A stretch of DNA of 64,000 nt from an uncultured Methanomicrobiales archaeon (GCA_963758915.1 CAVWXH010000009.1:224001-288000), one strand, 5' to 3'; positions 11,202 through 36,905 are shown, counted from the stretch's first letter. The notes: a model not told the origin generated them from the letters alone. Numbers and translations are program-made.

Positions 11202-12652
11202 ATGAGTGACAGCAGCACCCGTCAGAAAATGACCCCCAGAGAACTGATGATCGTCCTGGTAATATCCCTCGGATCGTTCATGGCCGGGCTCGATGGTACC
11301 ATCGTGAACATCGCCCTGCCAACAATCGGCAAGGCATTTGACGTCTCGACGGTGACGGTCTCCTGGGTGCTGAATGCATACCTGATTGTCCTTGTCAGCC
11401 TGCTCCTCTTTGCCTCCCGTCTCGGGGATATCAAGGGGTTTCGGAAACTATTCCTTGTGGGATTCGCAATTTTTACCCTTGGTTCTGCTATGTGCGGCCT
11501 TGCCCCGTCACTCGACATCCTCATCATCTCCCGCATGCTCCAGGCAGTAGGAGGGGCGTTTATCGCTGCTCTCGGGGCAGTGATGGTCACCACGTACCTA
11601 TCCCCGTCCCTCCGGGGACAGGCGCTTGGGATGGTGGCGATGTTCACCATGCTGGGTGCCGCTCTCGGTCCGGTACTCGGGGGTTTCCTCACCAGCGCCC
11701 TTTCCTGGCAGTTCATCTTTTTCGTGAACCTGCCGGTCGGGATCCTTGCAATTCTGCTCGGAATATATTATCCTTCCCCGAACTGACCCGGTGACCCCGA
11801 ATGCATCGATGGACCTCCCTGGAGTCATCATCATATTTCGCCGCCCTCGGTACACTGATACTCGGCCTGAACATGCTCACCAGCCCGACTCCCGTGAATG
11901 GCATTGCAGCACTGGTTGTATCTGCGATATTCTGGGGACTATTCTATATCCGCGAACGGAAGACTGCTGAACCGCTGATCAACCTGAAATTGTTCAAGAA
12001 CAGGGCCTTTACACTGCAGAACGTGAACGTCACGCTCACCCAGATTGGCCTGGCAGGGGTGATGATCCTGATGCCATTCTATCTCGAAATGGTCAAATTA
12101 GTCCCGACCGACAATGCCGGGACAATCCTCCTGGCCCTCCCGATCGGGATGATCCTTACCTCACCCATCGCCGGAAGGATCTCGGATGTGATCGGGACGA
12201 AAAAACCGATTATACTCGGTTTTATTGTAAGTGCAATCGCCTTATTCCTGCTTTCCACCCTGGGTTCCCATTCGAGTATCGGGCACGTGGAAATCTACCT
12301 CTTTCTGCTTGGTGCCGGTACCGGGTTTGCCTATGCCCCGCTGAACAGTGCCGTAATGGGTGAAGCCCCGGTGAAGGACAGGGGGTCAACATCCGGCCTG
12401 ATCAAGATGATGTCCAACCTGGGTTCATCACTGGGGGTCGCACTCGTCATGCTTGTCACCACGGTCGCAGCCGGGTCCAGGATGGCCCAGGAAGCAACCC
12501 ACCATCTGCTTCCTGCAGAAATGGCCAGCGCTTTTGATACCGGGTTCTTCTTCCTGATGTGCATCGAAATCCTTGGGATTGTTTTAATGCTCCTTGTTAA
12601 GGAGCACGATACCGGTTACAGCACTGAGGGAGAACCGGTTGCAGCGTATTGA
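11202..12652 (+). CDS. MFS DHA2 (EmrB/QacA) drug/metabolite transporter, frameshifted around 11770-11840
   Basis: LDGTIVNIALP, GPVLGG..., WQFIFFVNLPVG and EPLINLKLF motifs across two ORFs. Confidence 0.85.
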
Positions 12653-12796
12653 AAATTGGAGACTGGAGGGTTCGATTTTTTTTAGGATATGGAAATTCAC
12701 AGAGGCATTTGAAAAGAGGGACATAACCCTCCAAATAGAAAACGATTGTACCATTTCAGATGCAGTTAAAAAATAGTGTACCGAATCAATACGCAA

Positions 12797-13643
12797 TTAC
12801 AATCCTTTTCTTACGTAATAGAATATTATTACTCCCCCAATCAACCCAACCACAATAACAATTTCAGCAATCATGATCCAAGGGGAGGATGAATTATTTC
12901 CAGTTTTAATCGGTTGAGTTGATACCGGATTCACCACATTTTGAGGAGTTGCGGTCTCTTTCGGTGCTTCTTGGGTCGCTTTTTGATTGACAATGTTCTG
13001 AGTCACTACGGGTGTGACTACTGAGGTTTGAACCATTTGAGTAGATGTCGTAGTTGCAATGGTAGTTGTACCGCTGCCGGTAAATGAATAGCCTGAATAA
13101 CCTCCTCCTCCACCCCCTCCTGAATAACCTCCGCTGCTGCTGGTAGAGGTTGGTATTACGGTCCCACCTCCCTGGACTAATGAGCTGGGCATCGGTCACC
13201 GTTGGAACAACTACCCCCCCACCATCTGCATTCATCCGGATTGAATTAATTGAAATACCTGTTGTGCCTTGTGATACGCCACGAACAGTAATCGTCCCAA
13301 GAAGGATTTCGTTTGCACCAGGTTGAACCATTTTTGCAATATCAACACCACTTGTTCGAACCACTCCTTCTGACAAGTACGTGGTGTTATTCAGGGATTC
13401 CCAAGTGGGATATACAACCCCTGTAATCTCTGCAACACCCGGATTTGAAAGAATGAGGTTCAGGTTATATCCTGCAATTCCATCAGGTGCTGAATCGAGT
13501 ATTAATTTAAATTCTGTAGTCGTTCCCTGTGAAATTGTTCCCTGTGATGGCTCAATCATAATTGTTGCTGCAAATGCTGTTGATACAGTAATTATGGATA
13601 CTATCATCAGAGCCAGTAATGAGGTGTGAATTCTTTTTTTCAT
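12797..13643 (-). CDS. Membrane-anchored single-cohesin protein (signal peptide, cohesin, Gly/Ser/Thr linker, C-terminal TM), frameshift near 13170
   Basis: LDSAPDGIAGYNLNL.LSNP.VAEI.GV.YP.W...GTITVRG resembles the cohesin in the upstream giant protein; ends PWIMIAEIVIVVGLIGGVIIFYYVRKGL. Confidence 0.7.
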
Positions 13644-13749
13644 TATCTGCACCATGTGGAGCTTGATATTCCTATGAATAAATTTGGTTATCTTTTTTAT
13701 CGTTTCTCGGGAGAATTAATCAATCGAAAAAAAATCATTTGGATATTTC

Positions 13750-16700
13750 TCATCCAAGCACTATCCAATACAGCAGGACCAGATCATCGTAGTCGATATA
13801 GCCATTGTGGTTGTAGTCGTAGGGTGCAACACCCACATCGTATTGAGCTGAAATCCAGTCCATGTTCTGGTAATAAACGACAACATCATCGTAGTCGATA
13901 TAGCCATTTCCGTTGATATCCTCAATGAGGTAATCGCCGTTTGTATCGGTTGGTAAATTCGTGTAGCCTGGGAAAGGCTTCACAAGCGGCGTTACGTTGA
14001 TATAATTCTGCTTGGTGCTTGTTGCCTGTGTGTAGGCATTGCTAACTGTTAGATTCACGGTATAATGACCGGGCCCATGATACCTAGCCACCGGGTTAAC
14101 CTGCGTTGAAGAGACGCCATTACCAAAGGTCCACTGCCACGATGAGGGCACGGGATTACCAGTCGAGAGATCTGTAAAAGAAATATCTAGTGATACATTG
14201 GTAGAGGCCATTCCAGAAGTCCTGTTTGCGTTGAAGTCAGCAATGATAGGACTATAGACATTTATCTGCCCATTCATTATTGCCGGATTAACGATACCGC
14301 CACCATCTGCATCCATCGCGAACTGAACTGAGGGTAATCGGACTTGTTCCCGGTACATCCCCACGCACTGTCACAGATGCTATTACTGTGTTTAGAGAAC
14401 CGGCCTGAACCAGATGTTGAGATCGACAGCACTGATTTTTACAGAACTAGCGGGTAAGGCACTAGTATTTGAGAGCCCCACCCATGACGGATAGGTAACG
14501 TTCACAATCTTTCCAATATTTGGATCAGTCAGGGTAATTACCAAGTCATAGCCTGCGATACCATTGGGTAAGGAATTCATTACAAGTTGGTACTGTGCAT
14601 TTCCTGCCCGATGGGGATGTTGTCCAGCCACCGGGACCAGTGACAATGTTGGGGAAGAGGGTTGTGTACTAATTGGAGTCAGGGTGATTGATGCGACCTT
14701 TTTCACAACTTTGCCCCCTGTAACATTCTGCCCGACTAACCGGAGTGGCCAGCTGTCGCCGGTCTCCGCAAGAAGGGTTCCGTTAAGTGAATTGGCAATA
14801 ATGTAATTGTTGCTGCGGATTGTGTTCCTGCTGTTAACGGTAACAGAATACCCGTCTGTGGCAGTAATAGTGACGTTATACCCTGCCTGGGCCTTTGTTT
14901 CGTTGTAGGAGTTGCTTGAATGCTGGTCGGCATCGTCAACAAATCCGCAGAGGAACCAGAGTGGCATACCAGACCAGACACGGCTGCTGCTATCGGTGTA
15001 ATTGACCTCGTGGTTTGATCCGAACTGGCATGCAAGTGCCTGTTCAAAGTAGACCTTGCCGATGGTAGAGTTGAGTCCGCCGATATCACGCCCGTCAAGC
15101 ATGAGGTTCCAGTCTGATGCAGGTGACGAATAGATCTTCACCGTTGTGACCAGTTTTGCCGAAGTCCCGGCACAGGACGGGTAGTTGACCCCATTCTGCG
15201 TGTTATAGTGCCAGTATGCCGAGGGGAGTGACTCATGCATGTCCCACTGACCGTATACGTGGTCGTCGGGCATGAAGAAGAGCCGCATCCCGTCCTGGTA
15301 ACCCGGGACATACTGACCGTCCGCATACCAGGCGAGGATTGCATCTCCCTGGCGTGCCTGGACTGCCGGGTTTGTGTATATGGAGGAATAGGGCAGGGTC
15401 GTTTCGTACCCGTCACTCGCGATGAACTTGATATCGGTTCCTGATCCCATGCCACCGACGAGGTTACACAGGTCCATAACCCTGCTTCCCTTCACGGCAT
15501 TGGAAATCTTGTATCCGCCGGGGTATGTCTCCTCAGGGTCCCAGAGGTTGGTCGGGACCAGCGTGAGCCCTTCGTATTTGTACAGGGTTGTGCCATCTCC
15601 CACAACCGCGAGGTTCTGCTCCATCCACTCCCGGGTTACGGTTGTCTCGTTGACAATGGTAACGCCATCTGCTGCATATTTAATGATATGGAGCGGTGCT
15701 GCAGTCGTCGGAGTCTGGAACTCGGTAAGTTCAATCTCCACGACATTTCCGACACTGTTTCCACCGGTCGCACCTGATCCGACAAGCCTGAGTGGCCAGG
15801 GGGGATGACTGCCGGTGGTAGGTAATGCTGCACCATTCATCACATTGGCGAGAATGTAATTGTCATTCTTGCCGATCGCAGCGCTGGTAAACTCCTTGGA
15901 GTATCCATCCCCGGCTTTTACAATTACTTTGTAACCAGCTGATGCAGCGGAATCATTGAAACCGTTTGAACCATGCGGGATCCGGTCATCAACCCATCCC
16001 ATCAGGCGCCAAAGGGGAATACCCGTATACACATTGCTGCTGTCATCTGTATAGGTTGACTGGTGGTGGGCGATCCATTCTTCCAGTTCGGGTTGTGTGA
16101 TCACATCGCTTATCCGACCCTTAAGTGTCAGGCTGTACGCTCCGGCCGGGTAGGACGGGAGTCCTTCGAGGCGGATTGTGGTAATATTGCCGACACGCTG
16201 GCCATTCGATGTGGTTGCCGGACCGACAAGTTTGAGGTGGCCGTTCGATCCTGATAATGCGCTCCCATTTAACGTGTTGGCCACGATAAAGCCGTCGTTA
16301 TGGCTCACAACCTGGCTGGTGAAGGTCCTGTTGTAAGTCGCCAGCCATCACCCTGACGGTATATCCTCCTGTGGCACGGGTATCGTTAAACGTCCAGTGA
16401 CTCGATGGTCTCAATATCATCAACACTGCCGACCAGGTCCCAGAGGGGACACCAGTCCAGACTGATCCACCGGCATCAGTATAGGTCACATTATGGTGGC
16501 AGACAATTGCCTGTTCGAAATACTGCTGCGTGATAACGTCAGTTACATCCCCTTCCATGGTCAGGGTCCAGCCTGCTGCCGGTTGTGGTAGGCCGACGAG
16601 TTCAATTTCATTGATTCCACCGACCTGCTGTCCACCGAACACGCTCGATCCCTTGAGCATCAGGGGCCAGCAGGGTTTGCCACCAGGCGTAGTTGTCGGG

Positions 16701-19112
16701 AGGGCCGTGCCATTCAGGGTATTGACTACGAGATAACCGCCATCCCGGGCAATATCTGCGCTGGCGAGGCTCGTGTCCCAGTCAGCAGCTTTTACTTTTA
16801 CCGTGTACCCCTGGGTAGCGAGTGCGTCATTGAATGTGTAGTGACCACTGCTTTCCTCGTCATCAATCATGCCAACAAGGACCCAGAGCGGAATTCCTCC
16901 CCAGACACTGCCATTCGTATCTGTCCAGGTCACGTTATGGCCAGACGGGACACAGGCGAGTGCTTCCTCGAACTGGGCCTTGGTAATAATCCTGTTTACT
17001 TTGCCCTTCATTGAGAGGGAATAGTCGGTTGAAGGTTCACCACCGGTTGAGACCGTTATCAGTGCTGCAGCGATTGCATTTTGCGGGGTGACAGGTTTCA
17101 CACCGTAATAGAAATTGACATGATCGCCATTGGCAACGGTTTTTATGTTGAGCCCATCAGTGGAGGGGAATCCGTAATCATCCAGGGTAACCCCGTTTAC
17201 CTGGCAAATCCAGGTCTTTCCTGCTGTTTTATTATAGTCGTAACTCCCGATACCATCGAGCAGGAAGTACCCTTGAGTCCCGAAGTTCTTGTCCGAAATT
17301 TTGAAGGATAATCCCGCACCATTCAGCGCCCCGAGTGGGGTGGTTGTGTTGATATCATAGGATGCACCTGAATTGTATGCCACTTTATTGAAGGTTCCTG
17401 TGCTAAGGGAGACGGTGCCGCTATAGATTGTGTCCACTACCGGTCCCGCAGATGTGACATTAATATAGTTACTTTTCAGCGTTGAATTCGAGCCTGCGGC
17501 ATTGCTTACCGAGAAGTTCACCGAATACACGCCTGCAGCGGAATACGTGTATACCGGGCTTTGGATTGTACTGTCGATAGTCCCATCGTTATTGAAGTCC
17601 CATGACCAGGTGGACGGGGACCCTGATGATGCATCAGTGAACTGGACCTGTAGTGGCGCAGCCCCCATTGTCATATTTGCGGCGAAGTCAGCGACAGGTG
17701 CGATCGGGGCTGCAGGGAGCCCAATCAGTCGGATTTCGGTGATATTTCCCACGCTGTTGCCACCAGTCGGACCGGAACCAACCAGTTTCAATGCCCACCA
17801 GATTTTTGAAGGGTTTGTCGGATCTGTAAAAGGAATTACTGTGCCGTTAAGCGTGTTTGCTACGATATAATTGTTATTGCTGGCAATGGTGGAACTTGTA
17901 AAGGTCTTGTTGAACCCATCCGCAGCCCTAACCTGGACTGAGTAACCCATAGAAGCCCGCGTGGTGTTGAAATTGTATCCGATTATCAGCGTCATCAACT
18001 GCTCCGACAAGATACCACAGCGGAATACCCTGCCAGGTGCGCTGATTAGTGCTATCTGTCCAGCTGGCACTCGGGCCACTTGTAACGATTGCTTCAATTT
18101 GTGCTTTTGTGAGAGTAACTGAATGATCGCCGGTTAACAGGAGAGAGTATTCAGGGGAGACTGGAGAATTAACAACAATATAACCGGTTTTGATCTCGCT
18201 GTCGGTCCCCTGCACATTTGTTACCGTTAGATTTACGGTGTAAGTCCCCGCGGTAGTGTACGTGTAAGCCGGGTTCTGGATCGTGCTGTCAACTGTCCCG
18301 TCATTGGTGAAGTCCCAGGCATATGATAGTGTGGATGTTCCGGTTGATGCATCGGTGAACTGGACAGTAAGAGGAACAGTTCCACTAACCGTGTCCGCAG
18401 AAAAAGCTGCCACCGGTGCGACAGGGGCGGGATCATTGCTGTAAATAAGTATCCTATTGGTGTTCTGCACCGAAAGGCCTGTTGCACTTGGTTGTCCAGG
18501 CTGGTAGTAATACCAGAATGCTTCAGGATAGGTTTCGTGCATATCCCAGAGCCCGAATACATTGAGTCCCCAGGGGTTGGTGGTAGTATCAGCAAAATTG
18601 ACATTGCGCATACCCTCGTTATATGAACTGTCCACATAACCCAGATCAGCTCTGTACCATGTCAGAACAATTGGTCCTGCACGGGCAGGTGGTGAGTAAA
18701 CGCTGGAATATGCAAAAAATTTGGAGAAACCGTCAGATCCCATGAGTGTGACATTGTAATCGCCAGAATCCATACCCCCAACGAGATCACAGAGATCCTT
18801 TACATTCGTGCCTTTGGCAGCACCAAAATCTTTTGTCAATATGGCCGGATCGTTCTCTTCCGGATTCCATTTATTGGTGATACTTGCGTTAAATACAGGT
18901 CCCTGCACATAATAATGAGTGAAACCGTCCCCATATACAGGTAGGTTAGTCTCCATCCAATGGAAGTCAACCGTTGTCTGGTTCAGGATTGTTGTCCCGT
19001 CATTTGCATATTTAATGATCTGTACTGAAGTGGTCCCCGCTGCACTCGCTTGGGCGACAAATAACGTCATTACCACAATTAAAATGATAATTGGTGTCCA
19101 TTTTCCTTTCAT
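13750..19112 (-). CDS. Giant (~1790 aa) secreted multidomain protein: 7 molybdopterin-oxidoreductase-like repeats, 3 PKD, a DUF4430-like domain, a cohesin and a C-terminal dockerin; several indels
   Basis: ORFs 17928-19133, 16298-18097, 14392-16308 and 13750-14364 join across indels. PKD motifs FTDAS..WDF..DG. Repeated GIPLW.L.G.VDD...ADGY...ILAN..NG...WPLRLVG units. Duplicated D.NGNG.IDYDD / DYNHNGYIDYDD dockerin Ca-binding loops. Confidence 0.75.
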
Positions 19113-19277
19113 TTTTTGATAAACCCCCACCATGAGATCGTGGATTTATGGAAATTGTATCAATACGAGTGACTAAAAATATTGTGTTTTATTTTTTAAC
19201 TATGTTAAATTAGTTAATTATACTAGAATAATTTGAAATAACAAATTACTAATAAATATAGATAAAAATCTGTTAAA

Positions 19278-20369
19278 TTGTTGAAAATACCAACAGGAGA
19301 TAGATTGAAACATAGAGTTGCTTTTATTGTGTTAATTATTTGTTTATTACTCGGTAGTGCCTTAAGCGACCGACCGGCAAACGCGACAAACGAAGTCCAG
19401 GGAATTATCACGAGCACGAACATGGAATGCCTGGGAATAACAACTGAAACAGATCTCATTTCTTGGTCCGTGGAAGCCCCGGCGCGCCCGAAAGACTATG
19501 CAACAATAAAATTCGGGATAGTCGGCCTTCCACCAAACCTCTATTCTGCAATTCGCCGGGTTTCAGATGGAACAATCGTAGCGAAAACAAGTGGTAGCGG
19601 GACAATAGCATCAACTCTTAACGGAGACCTCTACCAGTTCGGGTATACCAATGGAATCATATTCTGGCCTGTAGAAAGTGGAACTACGTTATCCGACGGA
19701 TCTGCTTACAACGCACAGTATGATCTTACCCATGGATTCGGCATCGGTAATTCGTTAATGGACCCTGAAATGGTGTATTATTCGGCAGGTTACAATGAAC
19801 AGACCGTTGCAGTGTCAGGAAAAACTACCTACATTAAGTCTATGGCGTTATCAACCGCCAATAAAAATTCTGGCGAGAGCAATATCAAGTCCACAAAAAG
19901 TATCCAGTTTGTCGGGACCAATTCAGGAAGGATAACTTCATCCGAAGACCTCCTTGTTGACGGATCAGGTACCTGGTCACGAACCGGAGACAGTAATCTC
20001 TGTCCCGTTTGGCTCGCAGGATTCGGAATTTATTCCAGCCTTTTGTAATATTGCACAGGCAGGAAGTTCTATTGATATGAATCTCGTGTCCATGACAACC
20101 GATATAGATAGCAGGTTTATAGCAGCCAATTCCGCTGATTCCAGTGGTACTTAATTATGATATCAGTGCAGGGGGTTTAACACGGTAATGGGTATTCTCC
20201 TGCAACCGGGTCAGTTTCTGCATTTATTAAGGTCCATACGCAGGAAGCGAGGGGTAATATCTCCAAAAAGTCAGAGGATCTTTCATATTCTGAAATATCT
20301 TCAGCGAACGGACTCATCAAACAATTTACCAAGAAAATGAATTATCAGTCAGGGACCAGACTGAATTAA
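19278..20369 (+). CDS. Secreted beta-rich Methanomicrobiales protein, possibly sheath-protein (MspA)-like; frameshifted after 20000
   Basis: Signal peptide followed by D.P..AT.E.QGI.TST...G..TETD.ISW; later LCPF...IPAFCNI.Q.GSS; reading continues across indels to ...NYQSGTRLN stop at 20369. Confidence 0.55.
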
Positions 20370-20427: not shown

Positions 20428-21795
20428 TCAGACAAAAATTCGGACTTGTTTTCCAAAAACCGGAGTTGGTCTCTTAATAAAATGACAAAGATTTATTTCC
20501 TGCGATGGCGGGATCTTTGTTATCAGCACCCTTTCTCCCACCATCCCTTCCGGTAACACAACAATCTGTTTATCTTTCACCTCTGCGACCGGGACAAACT
20601 CAAGCAAAACCTGTTGGGAATTCACAGTTACCCTCATGTAACCGAGTGTGTTCTCCCGGCTGTTGACGTAACCGGGGGGTTTGTCCGCGGAAAGTGCGTA
20701 GGAAGGCGCACCACCGGTCGCGACCGTGAAATAATGGACCCCGTTCACCTGGAAATGCTCATACGCATGGACATGGGCAGAAAAGACAGCATCGACCCCC
20801 CCAGCGTTGAATACTGGCCCCCATTTTTCCTGTATATCAGCATAACCACCCCAGTGATTGACCTCGGAGGTATAGAGCGGATGGTGAAGAAAAACGAAAT
20901 TCCATGTTACTTTATTGTCAAGTGTGGCATTCAGCCATGAGTCCTGTGAAGATGCCACAACCGGCGAAACAGCATTACTATTGAGGGCGGTAAAGCGGGC
21001 ATCACTGCACATGAACGAATACCATGGGAGGCATGCCAAATCGTTCCTGATATACGGATAAGATTCCCTTCATGGTTCCCGGGAACCGGGTAAAAGGTCG
21101 TATTGGCAAGCATGGGACCGGCAGCCTCAAAAAAACGCCCCCATTCACCCTCATCGGCAGGGTCATTGACGAGATCCCCGGTATGCACCACAAAAAGACA
21201 ATCCGGTTCCTTCGCAATCCGTTGCTGCAACTAATGCATGGTGGGTCGACTGGTTCCACCTGGGCAGTTGTTCCCGTGTGTCACCATAGACGATAAACGT
21301 GAACGGACCATCGAGGGACAGAGTCCGGAACGAATAATTCCCCGGGTTGTTCCCGATCCAGTACGAATAGCGCTGACCTGGCTCGAGGTTATTCAGTTGT
21401 ACATGGTGAAGTATCGATGGGTTTTCCTCTGATACACTCTGGTCGGATATTCCAGGTGTTTTGATACCTGAATGGGCAAAACCAACACGGCCGATTGAAG
21501 GTTCCAAAGTCTTCCAATGGAGGATGGTGGAATTGTGAGTAGTGTTTGTAATGTAAGGTCCCCATACTATCACTTCATCCCCTTGGGACATCCCTTCAAA
21601 GTTGCCTATCACCGGATCTGCATATGCAACAACTGGAAAAAGGATTGTAAGAAGAATCAGGGAAATTAGCATTCCCCTCCATTGGTATGCATACCAGCGC
21701 CCGTTGTAATTCATAGAGAGAGAATTGTATTTTTTACCACACTTTTGATCTGCGGGTAAATTATCCGGAACTGGAAGGTCGGTATTCATACCCAT
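20428..21795 (-). CDS. Secreted purple-acid-phosphatase-like metallophosphoesterase with FN3-like N-domain; 2 indels
   Basis: YGDTR, HTGDLV, PGNHE, HHPLY and SAHVHAYE motifs across ORFs 21163-21795, 20931-21230 and 20428-21039. Confidence 0.85.
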
Positions 21796-21804
21796 CCCCT
21801 CACT

Positions 21805-24800
21805 TCAGGCCACACTCCCTTTTTCCTTAAACATCACGACCTCGCGGTGGCTCTCACCGGGTTTTACATTGACTTCGATCGTCCGGGTTTCACCATTACG
21901 ACGCACAGTTACCTGGTGTATACCGAGTGAAAGGTGTTTGAAGGTATACGGTGTGATTTCTCCTGTCACAATCCCGTCAATCAGGATATCGGCCGCAGGG
22001 GGCAGCTTTCAAGGGTAACCGGGCCGCTGGCATACGTATCCAGGATAAATGATACAGGTTTGCGGACAACTGGACTATCGGTGATCGGTATCTCCGTGAT
22101 GGTTTCTCCGGGAATATATCCCGGCAGGGTGACAATTATCCGGTGCAGCCCTGTTGAAAGGTTCGGAATAACCGCAGGGGTAGTATACCCCGACCACAGG
22201 CCATCAACAAATATTTCACCACCGGGCGGTGAAGATTCTACCGGTAATTTGTAGAGGGGGGGGCTTGAAACCGGAACCGCAATACTGTTTTCGTCCGAGG
22301 TAATAGCAAACGGCCTGTATGAAAGGTACGCCCCTTCACGAATAACCGTAAAGAAATCATCAGGTCCGGTACATTCAATTTCAGCCGGGGTCTTCCTGAT
22401 CGGATAATACCCGTTTACCGTGAATGAATACGAGGTATTATCAGGGGAATTAATCCGGATTTTTCTCGGAATATTGCCCGAGATCAGGTTAAAATCAGCA
22501 GTAGTGACCGCATCAGCATATACCCAGACCCGGAGGGATCGTGATACAGTGGTCTTGTCCATCTCTGATGTCTGTCTCACTTCGACAATGTGAATGCCTT
22601 CTTTCAGCCCGTACACTACGGCAGGAAGGACCGCCTCAATTTTTTTCGTATCCACCCTGAGCTCTGCATCGGCCGGGTACGAGGTGATGTAAATACCCCC
22701 GCTGTGTGAGGCTGGTTTGCGTTGCAATGTTGTTCCGGGGTTATTTACCACATTTGGCTCCTTTTTTACTGCAATCACCGGGGATTCTGTTGGGTACCCT
22801 GTTACCGGAACCGGAGTTATTAACGCAGAATTTTCCACCGGGAAAGAATCATCGCCCGTGGGAAATTCTCCTCGTAATGGATCTGCATGAGGGATCGATT
22901 CCGTTGAGTTATCGGAGTGGGCGTCTTCAATAATTACATCATTAACTGAATTCCGGTCAAGGGGAACCATGTCGCCAACAAGGGAGAATAGAAACACGAA
23001 TACCCGGTCGAGCGTATCAAAACCCCACGAAGAAAATTCCTTCGAGGTGGGTCCAGGTATTTTTTTCACCGGAACCGGCCCCGGGGTATTCCGGACAGGA
23101 GTAGTGCTTACAACAGGGTTTGTTTTTCCTTGAGAACTGCTCACGTTTTCAGACTTCCCCGGTACCGTAGTATTGACTGAAGTCTGGGCCGGTACAGGTT
23201 TTTTCACCTGTCCATTCATAGTAAAAATCGCTATCCGGGTCTCACCATAGAGTACTGATGATTCATTGAGTATTGCCTGGATTGATGTATGCACTTGTGA
23301 TCCTGCCTGGGGAGCAGGAAATGATATGGCAGCGGTCCGGACAGGACTTTTCGGGTCTGTAAATGTTCCGGGAAATGTCTCACCATTTATTGCTGCAAGG
23401 TAACGGGACTGGGTATCATACACCATACTGGTACTGATAAATTGGAGGTCTGCGTGAGAAAATGCGGATCCTGATGGTTCAAGGTAGAATTCAGCGGTCG
23501 TCTCCGCATCGTTGTTTTCCCTGCCGGGCGGTGCAGAAATCACATCTGCCCCTTCGTGGAGCCAGTACGAGATAGTGGGTCCATTTTCATTTCGGGAAAC
23601 TACAACAAGCGCCGCACCTTCAAGTATACATGAAGTTCCAGGTGAGTTGTCCATGATAAGTTTTATTGTCTGCCCCGGTTTGGTAGAATTCGGCAGGATA
23701 AAGCAACTCGTTGTTACTAAACCGGATGTTGCATTCAGGCCATGGTCCCTGTATACACGGTCTGGGTTGATCGACGTTGTTCCCTGCACCACGATGAAAG
23801 ATGGATCGGCTCCTGCTGCCCGGGTTATATCATAACCCGCTGATGAAAATACATAGAGCCGGATACATGTGATGTCCCCGGTCGTTGCCAGTAACGGGAG
23901 GGAAAATGTCTGTTCACCCCCACCTTTTACCGGTCCTTCCAATACCTTAACAGGCATTATCGAGATATTGCCACGGATATTCTCATGCCTGTAAAGGTCA
24001 AGTGTGGACCCCTCTGTGCCATATACGGTATTCTTATCTGATCCTAAACCATCAGATCCAGCTTCAGCTCCGCTTGCAGGGCCGGGAGACGTCTTTTGCA
24101 ATGTAAAATCTGCAACGGATACCTGGTTAACAATCACATCAACCACCAGCGATTCTGGGATCTCGTATTCCTGTTTTTGTACATTCACAACATGTGGACC
24201 CAAAGAAACACCCGTAATCTCCGCGGGAGTGAGCTTGCCGGTGTCCTCGTCATCAACGAGTATCGTTGCGCCAGCCGGCTCTGATGTAACACGGATCGTT
24301 CCCGATGGTTCTTCCTGGCTGAAAATTAAGAATTTCTCCCAAAGACTGGACGGAGACCCCGGTGGTGGTGGGATATTTTTCATTCCCGTTATAATAGTAA
24401 TACCAGTATTTTTCGGCAGCACTTTCATGCCAGTCCCAGGCCCCCATCGCATGAATCCCCCACGGGTTGACCGAAGTATCGGCAAGGAAGACGAGGCGCA
24501 TCCCGTCATTGTACGAAGGAACATATCCCTTATCTGCCCGATACCATGCGATGACCATCGGTCCCTGCCGTGAAGGGGGCTCATACACATTTTCGTAGGC
24601 AAAAGTTTTAGAAAACCCATCTGTTGCTGTCAGTTTCAGTTCATCACCCGAAACCATACCCCCGACAAGGTTGCAGAGATCCCTGACATCGGTACCTTTT
24701 ATTGCACCCATGTCCTTCTCCTGGACATTGGTATCTTCCGCTATGTTCCACCGGTCTTCAGGCCTATCCACAAATACCGGCCCCTGGAGATAGTAATGAG

Positions 24801-24996
24801 TTATCCCATCACCTTTCACAGGCAGGTTTTGCTCCATCCAGCGGTAATCAATCCTTGTCTCGTTGAGGACCGTTGACCCGTCAACCGCATATTTTACGAT
24901 ATGGAGCTCCGTAGACGCGCCGGAAACGGTAATAGTCCCAAATGACAGCAGGAAAAGACATGTGAACGAAAGAAAAAACCACTGGTTGTGCTTCAT
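21805..24996 (-). CDS. Secreted protein: N-terminal Mo-pterin-fold-like 'X' domain, PEGA, DUF3344-like domain and further PEGA repeats; indels near 24340 and 22000
   Basis: The N-terminus (LHIVKYAVDG..WMEQNLPVKGDGITHYYLQGP) matches the giant-protein X domains. PEGA motifs VTSEPAGATILVD, ITSYPADAELRVD and VESSPPGGEIFVDG. Final PEGA read by hand to TGA at 21805. Confidence 0.7.
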
Positions 24997-25097: not shown

Positions 25098-26192
25098 TCA
25101 CATTAATTTAATTTCATTATCCGGAGCCGGTGCAACTGGCAGTACGAGCACGTGGTCTCTGGAGAATGACAACCGGACCGCATCGCCATTCTGAAATACA
25201 GGTTGCTCCTTGGTTTTTCTTGGAATCGTAACGCTCATTGGCAGAGGTCCTTCGACAGAGAGAGTACAGGTATAATCAGTGATTATCTGCGAGGCAACGG
25301 TCCCCTCAATAATATTATCCTGGTCTTCCGGGACCCGGCCATTTTTATGGATAGCAATATCCCCGGCCCGGATGCAAACCACCACCCTGCTACCAGGGGG
25401 AAATATTTCCTCTGCGGTAATGGTTACCCCATGGACTTCGATAGAACTCATTCCAACGGTCTTTGCGTGGACAATTCCCTCAAAAATATTTTCAGTCCCG
25501 GCAATCACCGCGGCTCTCAGTGTTTTGGGATGTGAAAAAACATCAGTGGGACGACCGGTCTGAACGATAGAACCGTTGTCGATGAGTGCCACTTCATCTG
25601 CCAGGGAGTATACTTCATCCCGTGAATGGCTTACCTGGAGGATCGTAAGACCCTGGTCACGATGAAGGTCCCTCAGTCCCTGCATGCACTCCTCGCGGGA
25701 AACAGGGTCCAGGGCCGCAAAGGGCTCATCCAGGAGCAGTACAGTCGGATCTATTGCCAGGGCCCTGGCAAGGGCCACCCGTTGTTTTTCACCGCCACTT
25801 AACGTCGTGGGGAACCGGTCAGCCAGGTGGGATATCCCGAACTGTTGCAGCAACCCGCAGACTTTTTTATCCTGATCAGAGGGAGATTTTCCCTGCATTT
25901 TCATACCAAATGCGACATTCTTAGTAACCGTGTAGTGGGGAAACAGGGAATAGTCCTGGTAGACAAACCCGATGTTTCGTTCTTCCGCACGGGCACCGGT
26001 GATATCACTACCATCCAGGAGTACCCGCCCTGAACCAGGGACCTTCAGGCCTGCAATAATCTCGAGGATAAGGGTTTTTCCCGCACCGGACGGCCCCATC
26101 AGGAAATAATACCTGCCTGATGTAACATCGAGGTTGATGTCATTGAGACTGAATACACCCCTTTGTAACGAGATATGTTCAAGCCCGATCAT
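25098..26192 (-). CDS. wtpC: Tungstate/molybdate ABC transporter ATPase with TOBE domain
   Basis: GPSGAGKT, LSGGEKQRVALARAL and LLLDEPF motifs; C-terminal TOBE-like region. Confidence 0.85.
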   Translation of the reverse strand: MIGLEHISLQRGVFSLNDINLDVTSGRYYFLMGPSGAGKTLILEIIAGLKVPGSGRVLLDGSDITGARAEERNIGFVYQDYSLFPHYTVTKNVAFGMKMQGKSPSDQDKKVCGLLQQFGISHLADRFPTTLSGGEKQRVALARALAIDPTVLLLDEPFAALDPVSREECMQGLRDLHRDQGLTILQVSHSRDEVYSLADEVALIDNGSIVQTGRPTDVFSHPKTLRAAVIAGTENIFEGIVHAKTVGMSSIEVHGVTITAEEIFPPGSRVVVCIRAGDIAIHKNGRVPEDQDNIIEGTVASQIITDYTCTLSVEGPLPMSVTIPRKTKEQPVFQNGDAVRLSFSRDHVLVLPVAPAPDNEIKLM

Positions 26193-27006
26193 CAACATCC
26201 CCCTTTTTCTTCAGCAGTACCCTGAACAGGACGAATATTATCCCGCATATCACAATCATTACCAGTGCAACGCTCATGGCCTCCGAAAGCCCTCCGGAAG
26301 CGAACCGGTAATAAATCAACGTCGATATTACCATCGGGAAGTAGGCAATCATGATGACAGCGGCAAATTCCCCGATCGCCCTTCCCCACGCGAGCAACGC
26401 CCCGTAAGAGATATGGCGGGTGGACAGCGGGAGGACTATATGCCAGAATGCACGGAACCGTGAGGCACCAAGCGTTCTTGCGACATTCTCCAGCCGGACC
26501 GGGACCGTTTCAAATCCCTCGCGGACGGTGTTGACATAATAGGGAATTGCGACAAATACCATCGCGACCACTATTCCGGGATAGGCATCTTCGAATACGA
26601 TTCCTACGTTACCAAGCGGTGCTCCTATTATTCCCTGCGACATGAAGAGAAGATAGACCATGAGGCCTGCGACGGTATGCGGGAGGATCAGCGGTAAATC
26701 GATGATACTTTCAACCAGACCTTTACCCGGGAATGTACTTCTTGAGAGTGCGTAGGCGAGAGGGGTCCCGAACAGGATTAGAATTACCACGGCATTCAAC
26801 CCTGCAACCATAGTAATCCCCAGGGTGAGAAGAACAGAGGGATCGGTTACAACCCCTGCAAGATGAGCAGGGTTTGATAATTCAGGGATTGCAATGGAGA
26901 GGATGGCGAGGACAATGAACAGTACAAGGAGCCCGCCGATTAACCAGAAACCAAGGATACTCCTGTCAAAGACACCTCGTTTCACGTTCAGGGGTGCTTT
27001 CTGCAT
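26179..27006 (-). CDS. wtpB: Tungstate/molybdate ABC transporter permease
   Basis: IDLPLILPHTVAG, ENVARTLGAS and WGRAIGEF motifs. Confidence 0.88.
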   Translation of the reverse strand: MQKAPLNVKRGVFDRSILGFWLIGGLLVLFIVLAILSIAIPELSNPAHLAGVVTDPSVLLTLGITMVAGLNAVVILILFGTPLAYALSRSTFPGKGLVESIIDLPLILPHTVAGLMVYLLFMSQGIIGAPLGNVGIVFEDAYPGIVVAMVFVAIPYYVNTVREGFETVPVRLENVARTLGASRFRAFWHIVLPLSTRHISYGALLAWGRAIGEFAAVIMIAYFPMVISTLIYYRFASGGLSEAMSVALVMIVICGIIFVLFRVLLKKKGDVDDRA

Positions 27007-27010
27007 GGGG

Positions 27011-28039
27011 CTACTCCCGGATGATTTCTGTCTTGTTTAACGGGGCTGGCCATCCCGGTCTCCCCTTCCGGGCTTCACTCGCGATGTAGTCCACAAATTC
27101 CTTCGCAATTTCCGGGTGGGAAGCACTATAGGGTATCGTGACTGCGTAGACAATCGGTACTCCTACCCGCTCGGTTCCAATCGAGCTGAACCGCTGGAAC
27201 CCGAGAATAACAGTTACATTGCGATAGTTTCTGGCATACTCAGGTGATCCAAGATGGATGGATGACGGAAGACGTATCCACCGGAGGTTCTTCCCTTCCG
27301 CCACGCTGCGGTATTCGAAGGCATAATCGATACCTCCAGTCTCCAGAAGAGAAAGGAGGAAGATACTCCCGTCCCGGACAACCACGTGATCATCCGAAGG
27401 TTTCACAATCTCGGGGAGTATAATTGTCGTAACCTGGCCAACGGTCGTGACCGGTAGCGGTGGATCAAAATGGTCACCGATAAGAGTCCCGAATAGTTTA
27501 CTGGTGTGGTATTCGTTTTCTGCCAGCTTTGCGACCATCAATGCGCGATACCCGGCGGCGTCAAGCATCGGGTTTGATAGTCCCACCTTCACATCAGGCC
27601 GTGAGAGGACCACGTACCAGTTTTCCTCCGTAATTTCACTTGCATACCTGCTCTTGTTGGTGAAGGCGATGACCATCTCGTTTCCACCAAACGGCAGGTA
27701 CCAGTCGGTGTAGTTGCGTCCGTCCCCCCCGGCTTTCCTGTACATCAGGTCCGGTATCAGGGACTCATCCGCTACGGCAATCACGTCCCCTGGGCGGTGC
27801 AGGTCCGTAACCTGCCGGATGACCTGGATACTCCCATGCGGTTCCAGCTGGACATCGACATCGGGGTGAAGGGCTTCAAATTCTTTCTCGGCCTCCCCGA
27901 ACGGGATGACAAGGCTCCCGGCACAATAGACTTTCAGGGGGACCTTCTCCTTCGCCGTCCCGGTACACCCTGCCGTCCATGTAACAAGAACGACGATAAT
28001 TGCGAGGATAAGGATCCAGGACATGGATAACGCCTTCAT
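27011..28039 (-). CDS. wtpA: WtpA-family tungstate/molybdate-binding lipoprotein
   Basis: AGC lipobox; CAGSL, HGSIQVIRQVT, DVIAVAD, NPMLDAAGYRA and IDYAFEYRSVA motifs. Confidence 0.85.
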   Translation of the reverse strand: MKALSMSWILILAIIVVLVTWTAGCTGTAKEKVPLKVYCAGSLVIPFGEAEKEFEALHPDVDVQLEPHGSIQVIRQVTDLHRPGDVIAVADESLIPDLMYRKAGGDGRNYTDWYLPFGGNEMVIAFTNKSRYASEITEENWYVVLSRPDVKVGLSNPMLDAAGYRALMVAKLAENEYHTSKLFGTLIGDHFDPPLPVTTVGQVTTIILPEIVKPSDDHVVVRDGSIFLLSLLETGGIDYAFEYRSVAEGKNLRWIRLPSSIHLGSPEYARNYRNVTVILGFQRFSSIGTERVGVPIVYAVTIPYSASHPEIAKEFVDYIASEARKGRPGWPAPLNKTEIIRE

Positions 28040-28623
28040 TTCCGGTGGACTTCGATTCGGTCTACCCATTTGACCCAGGCACTTCCTTCTGTGACGATCC
28101 CAGGCGAGTCCGAAACGATTGCGACCCTCGCCGGCCCCCCGTCGTTGTATGTGACGGGTTTTCCATCCTGCTCGTACATGAGGATGACCTTCAGCGGCGG
28201 GGACGGGACTTCACGGAGTGACTCGTTGAACGTAACAAACCCTTTTCCGTTGAGTTGTCCCGCATCGAAGACCCAGAGGTACCCATCTGGTGCATACACC
28301 CATACCTGGTCTTTTTCACCGATCCCGCCAACAAGTGCCGCAAGATCACGGAGGTCCACACCTTTACAGGTATAGGGTCCGAACCGGATCCCGGTTGTGG
28401 AGACGGCGTACCCATTGGCCGTGACTGCTGGGAGTGCCTGAAGATCTGAAAGTGTCAGCACTTTTTCAGTCGTGCCATTGAGGGTGAGATGCCAGTTGCT
28501 GATTGAGGGATCTTCTGCCGGTATGGATTTGCCGATAGCGTTTCCGGTACACCCTGACGTAAGGACAAGGCCCATGCAAAGGCAGGCGATCACGAGGAAA
28601 CCCAGGATCTTCTGTCCGGGCAT
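28036..28623 (-). CDS. Lipoprotein with a sulfite-oxidase/MsrP-type molybdopterin-binding fold, lacking the catalytic Cys
   Basis: WHLTLNG...LTLSDL.ALP, KGV.LRDL, APDGY, ILMYEQDG.P, GGP.RV and WVKWVDRIEV; translationally coupled to wtpA. Confidence 0.7.
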   Translation of the reverse strand: MPGQKILGFLVIACLCMGLVLTSGCTGNAIGKSIPAEDPSISNWHLTLNGTTEKVLTLSDLQALPAVTANGYAVSTTGIRFGPYTCKGVDLRDLAALVGGIGEKDQVWVYAPDGYLWVFDAGQLNGKGFVTFNESLREVPSPPLKVILMYEQDGKPVTYNDGGPARVAIVSDSPGIVTEGSAWVKWVDRIEVHRK

Positions 28624-29543
28624 CAGAATCTCCTCCTCATGAACAGGATGCCGGTAATAATGAGAGCCGACGGGACGAGCAGGAGGGAGGAGGGGCTTTT
28701 ATTCGTTGGGGGGGCAGGATATGTTTCGTCCATTTTCGAACTAAACGATTTTGGCAGGAGATCTGTTGAACCTTGATAACCCCCTTTGTATACCCGGACT
28801 TCATCCACCCACTTGACGGTATACCCGCTTGTCGAAGGATAGAGATTTTCGAACAGGTGAATTGATTCGGGCGGCATTACTGCACGCATGTCCTGGTTGC
28901 CGAACACATGTTTCCTGCCCGGGTTTGTTGAATTATCGGCAAAGAACACGAGTCGCATCCCTACATAATAGTCTGGAGGGTACCCGGTTCCCTGCCGTTC
29001 CCCTATCGTCGATTCATTACCGTTGAACCAGGTGACGGTGACAGGACCCTGCCGGGGTTCCGGTTGGTAAATGTTTTGGTAATCAAGTTCCACATGGTAA
29101 CCGTCACCGGATTTTATCATAACCTGGTCTCCGGGGGCCATTCCCCCGACCAGGTCACAGAGGTCTTTTACCGCTGTCCCTTTGACTGCCCCCATATCCT
29201 TGAAATTCGTAGTCTCGTTGGTATCCCATTGTGCTTCCTTTGATTCTACAAAGACCGGGCCCTGGTGATAGTAATGGGTGACCCCGTCACCCTGCACAGG
29301 GAGGTGGGACTCCATCCACCGGGTACTGACCGTCGTCTCATTGACGACCATCGTCCCGTTATCCGCCATTTTTATTACATGGAGCGAAGAGGTCGGTTCA
29401 CCCGCAACCGGGAATACGAGGATTGCGATTCCAGCGAGGAGAATCAGCAATAGGAGGACCCCGGTCCCATTACATCTCCCATGCAGGGAAATCGAACGAT
29501 TCCGGACGATATTTGCAGGTAATTGTAGTGATCTATGAGGCAT
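28623..29543 (-). CDS. Surface protein with a single 'X' domain and a C-terminal KSP-TM-basic sorting signal
   Basis: WMESHLPVQGDGVTHYYHQGP, DMGAVKGTAVKDLCDLVGGM and TVKWVDEVRV; tail KSPSSLLLVPSALIITGILFMRRRF. Confidence 0.7.
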   Translation of the reverse strand: MPHRSLQLPANIVRNRSISLHGRCNGTGVLLLLILLAGIAILVFPVAGEPTSSLHVIKMADNGTMVVNETTVSTRWMESHLPVQGDGVTHYYHQGPVFVESKEAQWDTNETTNFKDMGAVKGTAVKDLCDLVGGMAPGDQVMIKSGDGYHVELDYQNIYQPEPRQGPVTVTWFNGNESTIGERQGTGYPPDYYVGMRLVFFADNSTNPGRKHVFGNQDMRAVMPPESIHLFENLYPSTSGYTVKWVDEVRVYKGGYQGSTDLLPKSFSSKMDETYPAPPTNKSPSSLLLVPSALIITGILFMRRRF

Positions 29544-29544
29544 G

Positions 29545-32408: not shown

Positions 32409-33279
32409 TTAATCAATACCCTGCAGGACTAGCCCAAGGGGTGTAACGAACTCCTTCAATTCCCGGAATACCTGGGAGATAGCAACAATTCCCGGCCTGT
32501 AACCGGAGGATATTGCAGTTATGTAAATCTCCTCCGGACCTGGGGGGATCAACCGGTTCCGCACCGATACCGAAGTAAGAACATTAGCACCGGCAATAGT
32601 CCGTTCCCTGTGAATGGCGCCGGTAATTGCAACAAGTTTTTCATACCACCCTTCGCACGGTTCATCATTGAAACTGATTCCTGCAGTTAACGACACAATA
32701 ACCCCACGATTATCGCCGGCAATGCCAGGAAGTTTCTCCGATCTCCCGGTTTTCAATTTGTTCCCCTGGCAGGTGTTATAATCTTTAGTACAGTGTGCAC
32801 ATTCCGGAGGGACTGAATTCTTTTCCATCCATTGAGCCCGGATCTTCTTTTCCTGGCCCATTTTTAGTTTGTATCTCCGGGAAAACAGAAAGGCCATTGA
32901 TGACCTGGTCGACAGAGGGGTCCGCCATCAGTGCATTTGGAGCCGGAAGGTCACCGAACACGATACAGGGGATTTCTACTGATTTGAAACCCTCAATAAT
33001 TACGAAGTCCATGCCAAGGTCTGCCAGGCGACCAAGTGCGTGAAACAGGTCAGGGTCCCGGAGAAGGATGACAGATTTTTCGCTATCAATACCTTCGGAA
33101 ATATTCACACCGGATTCAAAGAACAGCGTGGTATCCTTTCCTTCCGGAAGAGCGTAGGTATGGTGCCCGAGGTGCTTGATGGTCGCAACAGTCCCCATTT
33201 TTCGCAATTCAACAACCAGCCGGGTAATGAATGTTGTTTTACCCGAACCAGAATGTCCGACAATATGAAGCACTTTCAA
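32409..33279 (-). CDS. mobB: MobB (molybdopterin-guanine dinucleotide biosynthesis) with a possibly degenerate MoaE-like C-terminal extension; indel near 32860
   Basis: IVGHSGSGKTT, ATIKH, GKDT and IIEGFK motifs; C-terminal part lies in ORF 32409-32897 and is only weakly MoaE-like. Confidence 0.7.
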
Positions 33280-36844: not shown

Positions 36845-36905
36845 AGATTTGAGAGACTTTTCGTGAGGGGGGGAAAGTTTGTTTCCCATCCACAATTTTA
36901 ATATT

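Follow-up and report, generated by a model that had tools for sequence, protein, structure and literature searches.

Degenerate sulfite-oxidase-fold modules in a putative tungsten/molybdenum-linked surface apparatus of Methanomicrobiales archaea and bacteria

A cluster of surface-protein genes in a 64,000-nucleotide stretch of DNA from an uncultured Methanomicrobiales archaeon (GCA_963758915.1, CAVWXH010000009.1:224001-288000; hereafter the window, whose numbering is used throughout) encodes a giant secreted protein with repeated modules, named X and Y, and a small membrane-anchored protein, close to genes of a tungstate transporter. The nearest described relative of the modules is PruR from Agrobacterium, Vibrio and Klebsiella (7kos, 7kom, 7rkb). 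In the available text of PMC11194511, PruR is described as a secreted protein of ~140 amino acids with a degenerate sulfite-oxidase (SUOX) fold, which lacks the molybdenum-ligating Cys and binds a molybdenum-free pterin; its molybdenum-cofactor (Moco) cleft is shortened, and the small pterin is sandwiched between a Tyr and a Trp. The modules described here resemble PruR in being secreted, in their degenerate SUOX fold and in having no conserved Cys. On the other hand, PruR is the single-domain partner of a GGDEF/EAL enzyme in Proteobacteria, whereas here one protein may contain as many as seven copies of the fold, which also occurs joined to the S component of an energy-coupling factor (ECF) importer or in proteins encoded beside WtpA, and it is accompanied by riboswitches of the Moco/tungsten-cofactor (Tuco) class. 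No DcpA-type GGDEF/EAL operon partner was found; the neighbours are WtpABC, ECF components, a phosphatase and surface proteins.

The same fold is found in the Moco domains of sulfite oxidase, SorA and YedY (MsrP), with which the modules share a PF00174 match (in piece C of the giant gene and in a lone protein, Z) and the DGY and NG..L....PLRL motifs. Unlike those domains, the modules have no invariant Cys, a shortened hairpin region, no dimerisation or haem domains, no twin arginine and no redox partners. The layout also recalls cohesin-dockerin assemblies (the cellulosome, and those of Archaeoglobus and of anaerobic methanotrophic archaea, ANME), in which the dockerin is on the cargo and the cohesin is on an anchored protein encoded alongside; in ANME, as far as the available text of PMC9012536 describes them, dockerins are commonly found on binding proteins of ATP-binding cassette (ABC) transporters. 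Unlike the cellulosome, the locus has no multi-cohesin scaffoldin, with one cohesin per protein, and its cargo is a ligand-binding fold tied to tungsten and molybdenum; as the earlier note had stated, the cargo is not glycoside hydrolases, no such family being among the Pfam matches of the locus.

WtpABC/TupABC and ECF importers adjoin the locus in recognisable form, with WtpA above its NCBIfam cut-off and with ECF A-A', T and S components, and no accessory surface protein of these transporters was found in the literature searched. Unlike known ECF importers, those considered here include an S component with an extracellular SUOX-fold domain, which has only generic names in public records. A surface relay is known from Gram-positive bacteria, where NEAT-domain surface receptors of the Isd system hand haem to a membrane transporter. 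By analogy, in the reading that we propose, one binding fold would occur in large distal proteins, in small membrane-proximal proteins and on the transporter as well; the fold, ligand, anchoring and regulation differ from those of Isd, and the relay itself is part of our proposal. On balance, we lean towards the view that the locus is a surface capture-and-relay scaffold for tungsten or molybdenum or for their pterin cofactor.

Fold of the X, Y and Z modules

AlphaFold2 models were built from alignments of 43 Y and 46 X modules, and in these models X and Y both have the SUOX Moco-domain fold. The model of the fourth Y copy (Y4, m07776b0e646f) has a pLDDT of 92.3 and a pTM of 0.88, and that of the second X copy (X2, m689fac2aa755) has a pLDDT of 93.0 and a pTM of 0.89. 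By Foldseek, the Y4 model has 42 matches in the PDB at E<=0.001, with the PruR structures 7kom, 7kos and 7rkb at the top (E 2e-6 to 2e-5, TMq 0.68); the X2 model has 20 matches at the same threshold, with PruR 7rkb and sulfite oxidase 3hbg at the top. After PruR, both models match sulfite oxidases and dehydrogenases, nitrate reductase and YedY, and down to rank ~40 every match is PruR or a member of the SUOX family. The identity of X and Y to their PruR matches is 12-20%. Against PDB sequences, the Y profile reaches a plant sulfite oxidase only at E 0.015, over its last 50 residues, the X profile gives a single chance-level match, and Z matches sulfite oxidase at E 0.044. Since hhalign aligns X with Y at just 67% probability across 32 columns, the common fold of the two modules rests on the models.

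Pfam detects the family only in part. PF00174 matches piece C at 45.5 bits against a cut-off of 24 and matches Z at 43.8 bits (E 2.7e-11, profile positions 8-162 of 169), and single Y copies score 20-23 bits in a whole-genome scan, which is below the cut-off. The X-only proteins gave no Pfam match, and neither Pfam nor NCBIfam includes a family for the X module. X forms a compact family of its own: of 1.84 billion cluster representatives, 655 match at E<=0.001, and in these the module mostly sits directly after the signal peptide.

In the earlier note, the repeats were said to resemble the Moco-binding fold of sulfite oxidase/MsrP. The models bear out the fold, but the modules differ from ordinary Moco domains in being truncated (about 140 amino acids for Y and 190 for X, 140-195 overall), in being nearest to PruR, and in having no invariant Cys or twin arginine. 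Reading the alignments without superposition, no Cys is invariant or near-invariant in Y (43 sequences), X (46) or Z (14), and Y4 of the window lacks the one partly conserved Cys of Y. Apart from the start Met, the invariant residues of Z are only G, D, Y, L, P and V. The motif in which DG is followed by an aromatic residue is kept, with an invariant Y in Z and Y, W or F in most Y copies, and a Trp near the C-terminus is almost invariant in Z. The N-termini that were read are signal peptides without a twin arginine. An ordinary Moco enzyme was rejected for want of an invariant Cys, of twin-arginine signals and, among the neighbours scanned, of a redox partner.

Tungsten and molybdenum genes, riboswitches and importer fusions

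The earlier note had placed WtpABC near the giant gene, and the association proves far stronger than that: the genes are syntenic with WtpABC in relatives, and the same window holds MobB, MOT1, a second WtpA and a ModBC-like pair. Upstream of the giant gene and on the same (minus) strand are, in order, two X-only genes, Z, wtpA, wtpB, wtpC, a gene for an X-PEGA-DUF3344 protein and a gene for a purple-acid-phosphatase-like enzyme. The X-only secreted proteins (28623-30414) carry X at 28773-29384 and 29659-30276 (own profiles, independent E-value, iE, 5.3e-87 and 9.3e-92) and have no NCBIfam family. Z (28036-28623), directly upstream of wtpA, is a lone SUOX-fold protein of 195 amino acids that is lipoprotein-like, with a lipobox-like LTSGC. 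Judging from family matches, the genes at 25098-28069 are those of a WtpABC tungstate ABC transporter: wtpA (27011-28069) scores 322.1 bits for TIGR03730 against a cut-off of 242.75, and the best NCBIfam matches of the other two are WtpB (26179-27006; 260.9 bits, below the equivalog cut-off of 340) and WtpC (25098-26198; 309.6 bits, below the equivalog cut-off of 440). The X-PEGA-DUF3344 surface protein (21981-24996) is split by a frameshift into an X-bearing open reading frame (ORF) at 24253-24996 and the rest at 21981-24620, and its orthologues are intact at 1005-1127 amino acids in relatives. The purple-acid-phosphatase-like metallophosphoesterase (20428-21795) is in at least three pieces, with Pur_ac_phosph_N and Metallophos on separate ORFs, and its gene is unbroken in relatives.

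A molybdenum/tungsten island (32785-43994) lies beside the cluster in the same window. It contains MobB (32785-33363, minus strand), a 578-amino-acid ORF (33809-35545) in which a PBP_like_2 domain of the TupA type and a second WtpA-type domain over the TIGR03730 cut-off are fused or joined by an indel, a MOT1-type molybdate transporter of the major facilitator superfamily (MFS; 37302-38441), a TrmO_N protein (39535-40038) and a ModBC-like pair consisting of an ABC permease and a TOBE ATPase (42220-43994). CorA is also encoded in this island. TrmO/TsaA-like genes recur at tungsten transport genes: besides the copy in the window, one occupies the gap between wtpA and wtpB in genome G030 (L026:2974-3498) and one lies beside an S-SUOX fusion gene (L070:15250-16032). 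The sole Rfam match at the gathering threshold in the window is a tRNA gene (60724-60797, minus strand). Among the related genomes, the gene set and order of the window recur in G022, G036, G031, G027, G032 and G028, which represent several Methanomicrobiales families.

Homologues extend well beyond this order. In a word-indexed search with piece C, 7999 candidates were scored and 261 proved to be long homologues (E<=1e-3); the best 120 of the 261 are all at least 50% identical across at least 71% of the query. The archaeal-named sources are Methanolinea mesophila, Methanoregulaceae, Methanosarcinales, Ca. Argoarchaeum and ANME-1, and the bacterial-named sources are Dehalococcoidales, Pelotomaculum, Syntrophomonadaceae, Desulfotomaculaceae and Thermacetogenium. 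With Y4-X2-Y5 as the query and one genome per species, 75 loci were collected (18 archaeal and 57 bacterial by title); many of them end at contig ends, and because many are kin found by one query, the locus counts below are not independent. The Y-X-Y core is 51-63% identical across domains (Syntrophomonas, Pelotomaculum, Desulfotomaculaceae and Dehalococcoidia). A quick maximum-likelihood tree of 73 triads, in which loci whose best contiguous match was shorter than 430 of 489 residues were left out, needs one change of domain label (SH-aLRT 94). When rooted at the midpoint, it places the bacteria beside one archaeal subgroup, and the direction of transfer is not established.

In these loci the transport genes are again found alongside. 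A WtpA homologue is encoded in 17 of the 75 loci, 11 of which are bacterial; Z is likewise present in 17 and WtpB in 18. Phosphatase homologues are more widespread, with 53 loci, and TupA-like binding proteins rarer, with three; L055 combines a TupA-TupB-ATPase set with an adjoining MoeA. A count with a DUF3344 seed (74 of 75 loci) was discarded, the seed containing an X domain. The remaining ABC ATPase matches are the fused A-A' ATPases of ECF transporters, which also have a T component. In these, the S component (PF09819) carries an extra transmembrane (TM) helix and a C-terminal PF00174 domain, and a lone SUOX protein precedes it. The S-SUOX fusion is full-length in 14 of the 75 loci, and in three more the S component and the SUOX protein are encoded by neighbouring genes; the fusion family has 444 matches at E<=1e-3 among 8000 candidates scored, and its public names are only 'ECF transporter S component', 'thiamin/HMP permease' and 'molybdopterin-dependent oxidoreductase'. 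Of the signs that point to a role of the fold in uptake, the strongest is this fusion to the importer subunit that captures the substrate. In two loci, TupA-like gene pairs stand directly ahead of the S-SUOX-ECF operon with no TupB or TupC alongside (L045:1065-2920 and L056:491-2287); binding proteins partnering an ECF importer would be unusual. In another, a DUF364 ('putative heavy-metal chelation') gene lies just ahead of a riboswitch and the S-SUOX-ECF operon (L052:1158-1916).

The bacterial genes are also associated with a cofactor riboswitch. At Rfam gathering thresholds, RF01055 (the Moco/Tuco riboswitch) gave 26 matches in 18 of the 29 bacterial loci scanned, 22 of which had been picked for transporter matches, and it heads the giant gene or its operon in 16 loci. 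It lies directly upstream of the giant X/Y gene in ten (L040, L041, L042, L043, L045, L051, L052, L053, L056 and L107), among which L051 is from the cultured Syntrophomonas wolfei subsp. methylbutyratica, with the gene downstream of the giant on the other strand. It precedes an X-protein gene leading into the giant gene in five (L039, in tandem, L044, L055, L066 and L068), and in L061 it stands ahead of the genes for the phosphatase, X/Y, Z, S-SUOX and ECF proteins. Further copies are ahead of TupA-like genes and of the S-SUOX-ECF operon. The P3 stem is absent in four of four RF01055 alignments printed; the one match that, judged by its length, keeps P3 (in L047) has 145 nucleotides, against 115-121 for the other matches before giant genes. 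In the available text of Regulski et al. 2008 (PMC2408646), P3-less Moco RNA variants are said to go with tungsten-cofactor metabolism, and S. wolfei is credited with at least 15 Moco RNAs, some in tandem. Cyclic di-GMP (c-di-GMP) riboswitches were seen in some bacterial loci (L044:3162-3432, L058:331-410 and L094:20786-20871). In L044, a c-di-GMP-II aptamer lies 66 nucleotides ahead of the Moco-class aptamer that precedes the operon of the X protein and the giant, which suggests dual control by surface lifestyle and cofactor status.

The giant gene, its modules and its anchor

Minus-strand coding at 12797-19145 falls into six long stop-to-stop pieces between which the frame changes: A (17928-19145), B (16298-18133), C (14392-16347), D (13750-14370), E (12906-13715) and F (12797-13195). 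After bridging of the frames, the giant gene (13750-19133, with an alternative start at 19112) has ~1790 codons. It contains at least seven indels, and the small neighbouring anchor gene (12797-13655) contains one. At the junctions, the break at ~17985 marks the passage from A to B and that at ~16335 the passage from B to C; two breaks, at ~14415 and ~14318, separate C from D, with a 75-nucleotide out-of-frame stretch between them, and the break at ~13181, from E to F, lies inside the anchor gene. Inside B there is a compensated indel pair, where the Y motif 'PLW.L.G.VDD' reads 'SGTWSAVLMILRP'.

Profile hidden Markov models (HMMs) of the modules were built from the window's own copies and then iterated on relatives, and together with Pfam they give the order signal-X-PKD-Y-PKD-DUF4430-like-Y-Y-Y-X-Y-cohesin-PKD-dockerin. 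X1, Y1-Y5 and X2 stand in exactly the sequence that the earlier note had given. All modules are on the minus strand. A putative Sec-type signal peptide without a twin arginine (MVGVYQKMKGKWTPIIILIVVMTLFVAQASA; 19041-19133), read by eye from the translation, is followed by X1 (18426-19025; ~195 amino acids, iE 1.1e-85), whose SUOX fold is taken from the family model m689fac2aa755. After the first PKD domain (18177-18425; Pfam PKD_4, E 1e-14) comes Y1 (17717-18149), which is cut by the break at ~17985 and recognised in halves (iE 3.2e-13 and 1.6e-23), and then the second PKD domain (17456-17713; PKD_4, E 9.8e-13). The following module of 145 amino acids (17018-17452) is DUF4430-like as a lead only: a DUF4430 cluster is at rank 2 in the Atlas (0.89), the window copy has no Pfam match, and PF14478 scores 24.2 bits in the G032 orthologue and 23.3 bits in the G036 orthologue against a cut-off of 23.8. 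Y2 (16589-17023; iE 2.3e-51), Y3 (16159-16570; recognised in halves, broken by the compensated pair at ~16408-16445 and again at ~16335), Y4 (15718-16137; iE 6.4e-53; the modelled copy), X2 (15115-15693; iE 2.8e-76; the modelled copy) and Y5 (14671-15111; iE 1.4e-54) complete the SUOX-fold series. The C-terminal part consists of an internal cohesin-like module (14260-14646), which matches the profile of the anchor cohesin (A3), contains stops and is broken at 14415, 14318 and possibly 14622, the third PKD domain (13993-14226; PKD_4, E 2.3e-13) and a dockerin-like C-terminus (13753-13977) with two DxNxNGYIDYDD loop-helix repeats, which are recognised from the sequence, an alignment and EF-hand matches. 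Pfam thus finds in the giant the three PKD domains and the PF00174 match of piece C. Between the phosphatase and giant genes, the opposite strand carries an ORF of 256 amino acids (19278-20048, plus) whose N-terminus is hydrophobic and which belongs to no Pfam or NCBIfam family. Here the AT content of the region reaches its peak (19000-19499, GC 0.36), in what is probably the promoter region of the giant gene.

Strain and genome comparisons bear on the breaks. Of the sequencing runs listed as sharing words with the stretch, none is an RNA run. Logan contigs of four metagenome runs, which carry 0.20-0.43 of the sampled words, were compared with 12700-19200. They show frame-restoring indels of one or two bases at 13181 (-1), 14318 (-1), 14415 (+A), 16335 (+GC) or 16337 (-1), and 16408/16410 (-1) with 16445 (+C); they also deviate by one base at 14622 (-1), and the A/B junction at ~17985 is bridged by no contig of these runs. 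Homologues are present in 32 of 41 related genomes, the window's own (G000) being counted in both numbers. Unbroken giant frames of 1649-2462 amino acids occur in G002, G022, G030, G040, G036, G031, G027 and G032; the intact single frames belong to many-contig assemblies and complete genomes, while in the low-contig relatives G006 and G014 the giant gene is stop-riddled, as in the window. Other strains carry frame-restoring indels and relatives are intact, and we are confident that the breaks are consensus errors of the assembly rather than decay. The single secreted protein of ~1790 amino acids proposed in the earlier note therefore stands, separate genes being ruled out by the same two lines of evidence, and the functional form is one giant gene whether the breaks are error or decay.

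It is improbable that the window contains pseudogenes in decay and not a live cluster marred by assembly errors, although the breaks are many (at least seven in the giant gene and one in the anchor gene, with the MFS, phosphatase and X-PEGA genes broken too), none of the junctions read sits in a long homopolymer, and no metagenome run is clearly of the same strain, the best one carrying only 0.43 of the sampled words. Decay is difficult to reconcile with the frame-restoring form in other strains at seven places, with two breaks that are compensated pairs 40-100 nucleotides apart, as is typical of consensus errors, with the same type of damage in two low-contig relatives while many-contig assemblies are intact, or with wtpABC, Z and X-only genes that are whole. 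The MFS transporter gene mentioned here (11202-12652) is broken by a frame change into two ORFs in the window assembly.

The anchor gene (12797-13655, minus strand) encodes a signal, a cohesin-like module (13176-13568), a G/S/T-rich linker and a C-terminal TM segment (~12812-12880), and its layout, which the earlier note had described, is upheld by the translation, by Atlas cohesin clusters and by orthologous anchors of the same layout. In the Atlas, 30 of 30 matches of the anchor cohesin are in cohesin clusters (top score 0.95). The cohesin and dockerin calls are only partly confirmed: the window copies lack the Pfam support that their relatives have, and Atlas features and the duplicated loops speak for the calls. 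The cohesin copies of the window have no PF00963 match even at E<=10, and the cohesin profile has no match among PDB sequences, whereas three of 14 related cohesin modules match PF00963 (best E 9e-4), precomputed PF00963 is present on the homologues P0027, P0029 and P0051, and PF00404 is present on homologues as well. The window dockerin scores 11.2 bits for Dockerin_1 (PF00404), under the gathering score of 22.9; six of six related dockerin modules match PF00404 at E<=10 (best E 2.9e-6), with EF-hand models scoring higher. The dockerin contains two tandem segments, DINGNGYIDYDDVVVYY and DYNHNGYIDYDDLVLLY, with the calcium-binding loop-helix pattern (duplicated DxNxNGxIDYDD loops), and an alignment of six dockerin sequences has 26 invariant columns.

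All five giants that bear this type of dockerin (those of the window, G022, G030, G040 and G014) are followed by a signal-cohesin-linker-TM gene, and from this co-occurrence it is likely that the dockerin of the giant holds the protein on the anchored cohesin. A complex prediction for the anchor cohesin (A3) and the dockerin (A4) gave a score of 0.02 and a mark of 0.32 and was used neither way. The giants of G036 and G031 have their own C-terminal TM segment, after a T/P-rich linker, and their loci contain no cohesin module; those of G032 and G028 end in a domain without a family, and that of G027 (L029:4941-9878) ends in another, more canonical dockerin-like pair (DFNRNGYVD... DFNDNGEVD...). 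Elsewhere, cohesin/dockerin or PGF-CTERM modules occur on some archaeal-named proteins and SLH on several Bacillota-named ones. The genome that includes the window has eight cohesin-like and five dockerin-like modules, and further clusters of such modules lie at G000:C3:351000-358100 and C12:43700-45000; one frame in these clusters (1587 amino acids) has two cohesins and a dockerin, so that alternative partners for the dockerin of the giant are possible.

Proposed function, alternatives and significance

Under the capture-and-relay reading, the Sec-exported giant would display seven degenerate PruR-like SUOX modules for ligand binding, X twice and Y five times, with PKD domains as spacers and the DUF4430-like module in addition. 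Its dockerin would pair it with the cohesin of the neighbouring membrane-anchored protein, and its own cohesin could accept a further dockerin protein. The dockerin might instead pair with the internal cohesin, and copies of the giant might chain, as the earlier note had suggested. The modules may bind a tungsten or molybdenum species, which could be the oxyanion, a thio-form, or a metal-pterin cofactor or fragment of one. The X-only proteins and the lipoprotein Z, encoded beside WtpA, would then pass the ligand or the released metal to WtpABC, and the purple-acid-phosphatase-like enzyme may process a phosphorylated or dinucleotide form. In Bacillota, since the SUOX fold is fused to the ECF S component, the last step would be hard-wired, with the ligand delivered to an S component that carries the same fold. 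What the modules bind, how the ligand is handed on, how the giant docks and what the phosphatase does are what we infer from the genes and models.

Several points weigh against this reading. The known WtpABC system manages with WtpA as its only binding protein, and we know of nothing that requires a role for Z, X or the giant. The fold match, as modelled, is silent on which ligand the modules hold, and the shortened cleft of PruR is said, in the available text of PMC11194511, not to fit Moco. The riboswitch evidence is wholly bacterial, RF01055 not being found in the window or in three archaeal loci; it is absent from 11 of the 29 loci scanned, the scan was weighted towards loci with transporter matches, and 28 bacterial loci lay outside it. 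Moreover, because this riboswitch class also precedes genes of Moco-using enzymes, as the accessible part of PMC2408646 has it, riboswitch control alone does not mean acquisition. In 46 of the 75 loci, the flank has no WtpA/TupA-like protein or ECF S component (WtpB or WtpC alone being uncounted), and the loci, many of them kin, were collected by similarity to one query. Finally, if the at least seven breaks are real, the locus is dead in this genome.

A bolder version of the proposal is possible but doubtful. The SUOX modules would constitute a new class of receptors outside the cell that recognise the cofactor of tungsten (or molybdenum) or what it breaks down into. Metal-pterin set free by neighbours or by dead cells would be harvested by the giant, trimmed by the phosphatase and handed on by X and Z; the metal would then enter via WtpABC, or else the pterin compound via SUOX-ECF. 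A tungsten-cofactor riboswitch would shut the system off in replete cells, and there would have been one or more transfers of the system between methanogens and bacteria, many of the latter being named as syntrophs. If true, this would be the first tungsten/molybdenum cofactor-salvage route in prokaryotes.

Alternatively, the modules may bind metal-free pterins, in a PruR-like capture of excreted small pterins or of methanopterin- or folate-type compounds for sensing or scavenging, with the tungsten/molybdenum neighbours incidental. ECF importers usually carry vitamins or cofactor precursors, and the source names label the S component as thiamin/HMP-type. In addition, the PruR structures are the top Foldseek matches of Y and X, there is no invariant Cys, and the aromatic residue after DG, mostly kept in Y and an invariant Y in Z, recalls the pterin-stacking Tyr of PruR (an equivalence drawn without superposition). 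We nevertheless consider this explanation unlikely, since no DcpA-type GGDEF/EAL partner stands alongside and the neighbours are transporters, the upstream riboswitch is of the Moco/Tuco class, its aligned copies lacking P3, rather than of a folate or other pterin class, and WtpA, TupA-like proteins and MoeA recur alongside.

It is quite unlikely that the giant is a structural or adhesive surface protein, associated with the S-layer or with cell-to-cell contact in syntrophic consortia, in which the SUOX modules are mere building blocks. Such a role would suit the PKD, PEGA, cohesin, dockerin, SLH and PGF-CTERM modules of family members, the sharing of the family by methanogens and syntrophic Bacillota/Dehalococcoidia, the c-di-GMP riboswitches of some loci, with one just before a Moco-class riboswitch in L044, and the surface assemblies that the available text of PMC9012536 proposes for ANME dockerin/cohesin proteins. 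It leaves unexplained, however, the control by a cofactor riboswitch and the fusion to the S component of an importer, and in an adhesin one would expect the Y-X-Y core to be less conserved across domains than the 51-63% identity observed. Least of all do we expect a true extracellular Moco/Tuco enzyme, a sulfite-oxidase/MsrP-type oxidoreductase at the surface: PF00174 is above its gathering score in piece C and Z, the riboswitch class also precedes Moco-using enzymes (PMC2408646, available text) and source names include 'YedYZ catalytic subunit', but no Cys is invariant in the 43 Y, 46 X and 14 Z sequences, the modules have 140-195 amino acids against ~260-460 in the matched enzymes, the signal peptides lack a twin arginine, and no haem, cytochrome or Fe-S partner is among the neighbours scanned.

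No description of the system was found in the literature searched on tungsten/molybdenum transport, SUOX-fold and dockerin proteins, Moco riboswitches or pterin signalling, although the supplementary figures of PMC2408646 may already show the genes as hypothetical. We rate the system as a new kind of tungsten/molybdenum-linked surface apparatus, which is in no transporter-accessory family found. Several carriers are cultured and allow testing, namely Syntrophomonas wolfei subsp. methylbutyratica, Sporotomaculum syntrophicum, Thermovorax subterraneus and Methanolinea mesophila.

Methanogenic and syntrophic communities depend for their electron flow on tungsten and molybdenum enzymes such as formate dehydrogenase and formylmethanofuran dehydrogenase. 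To our knowledge, the ABC transporters mark the limit of what has been described of how trace tungsten and molybdenum are acquired where sulfide prevails. The capture-and-relay scaffold would add an extracellular capture layer to tungsten/molybdenum homeostasis and may assign a function to some of the Moco-class riboswitches in Syntrophomonas. Archaeal cohesin-dockerin modules would gain a concrete cargo, and the PruR branch of the SUOX fold, so far linked to signalling, would acquire a role in uptake.

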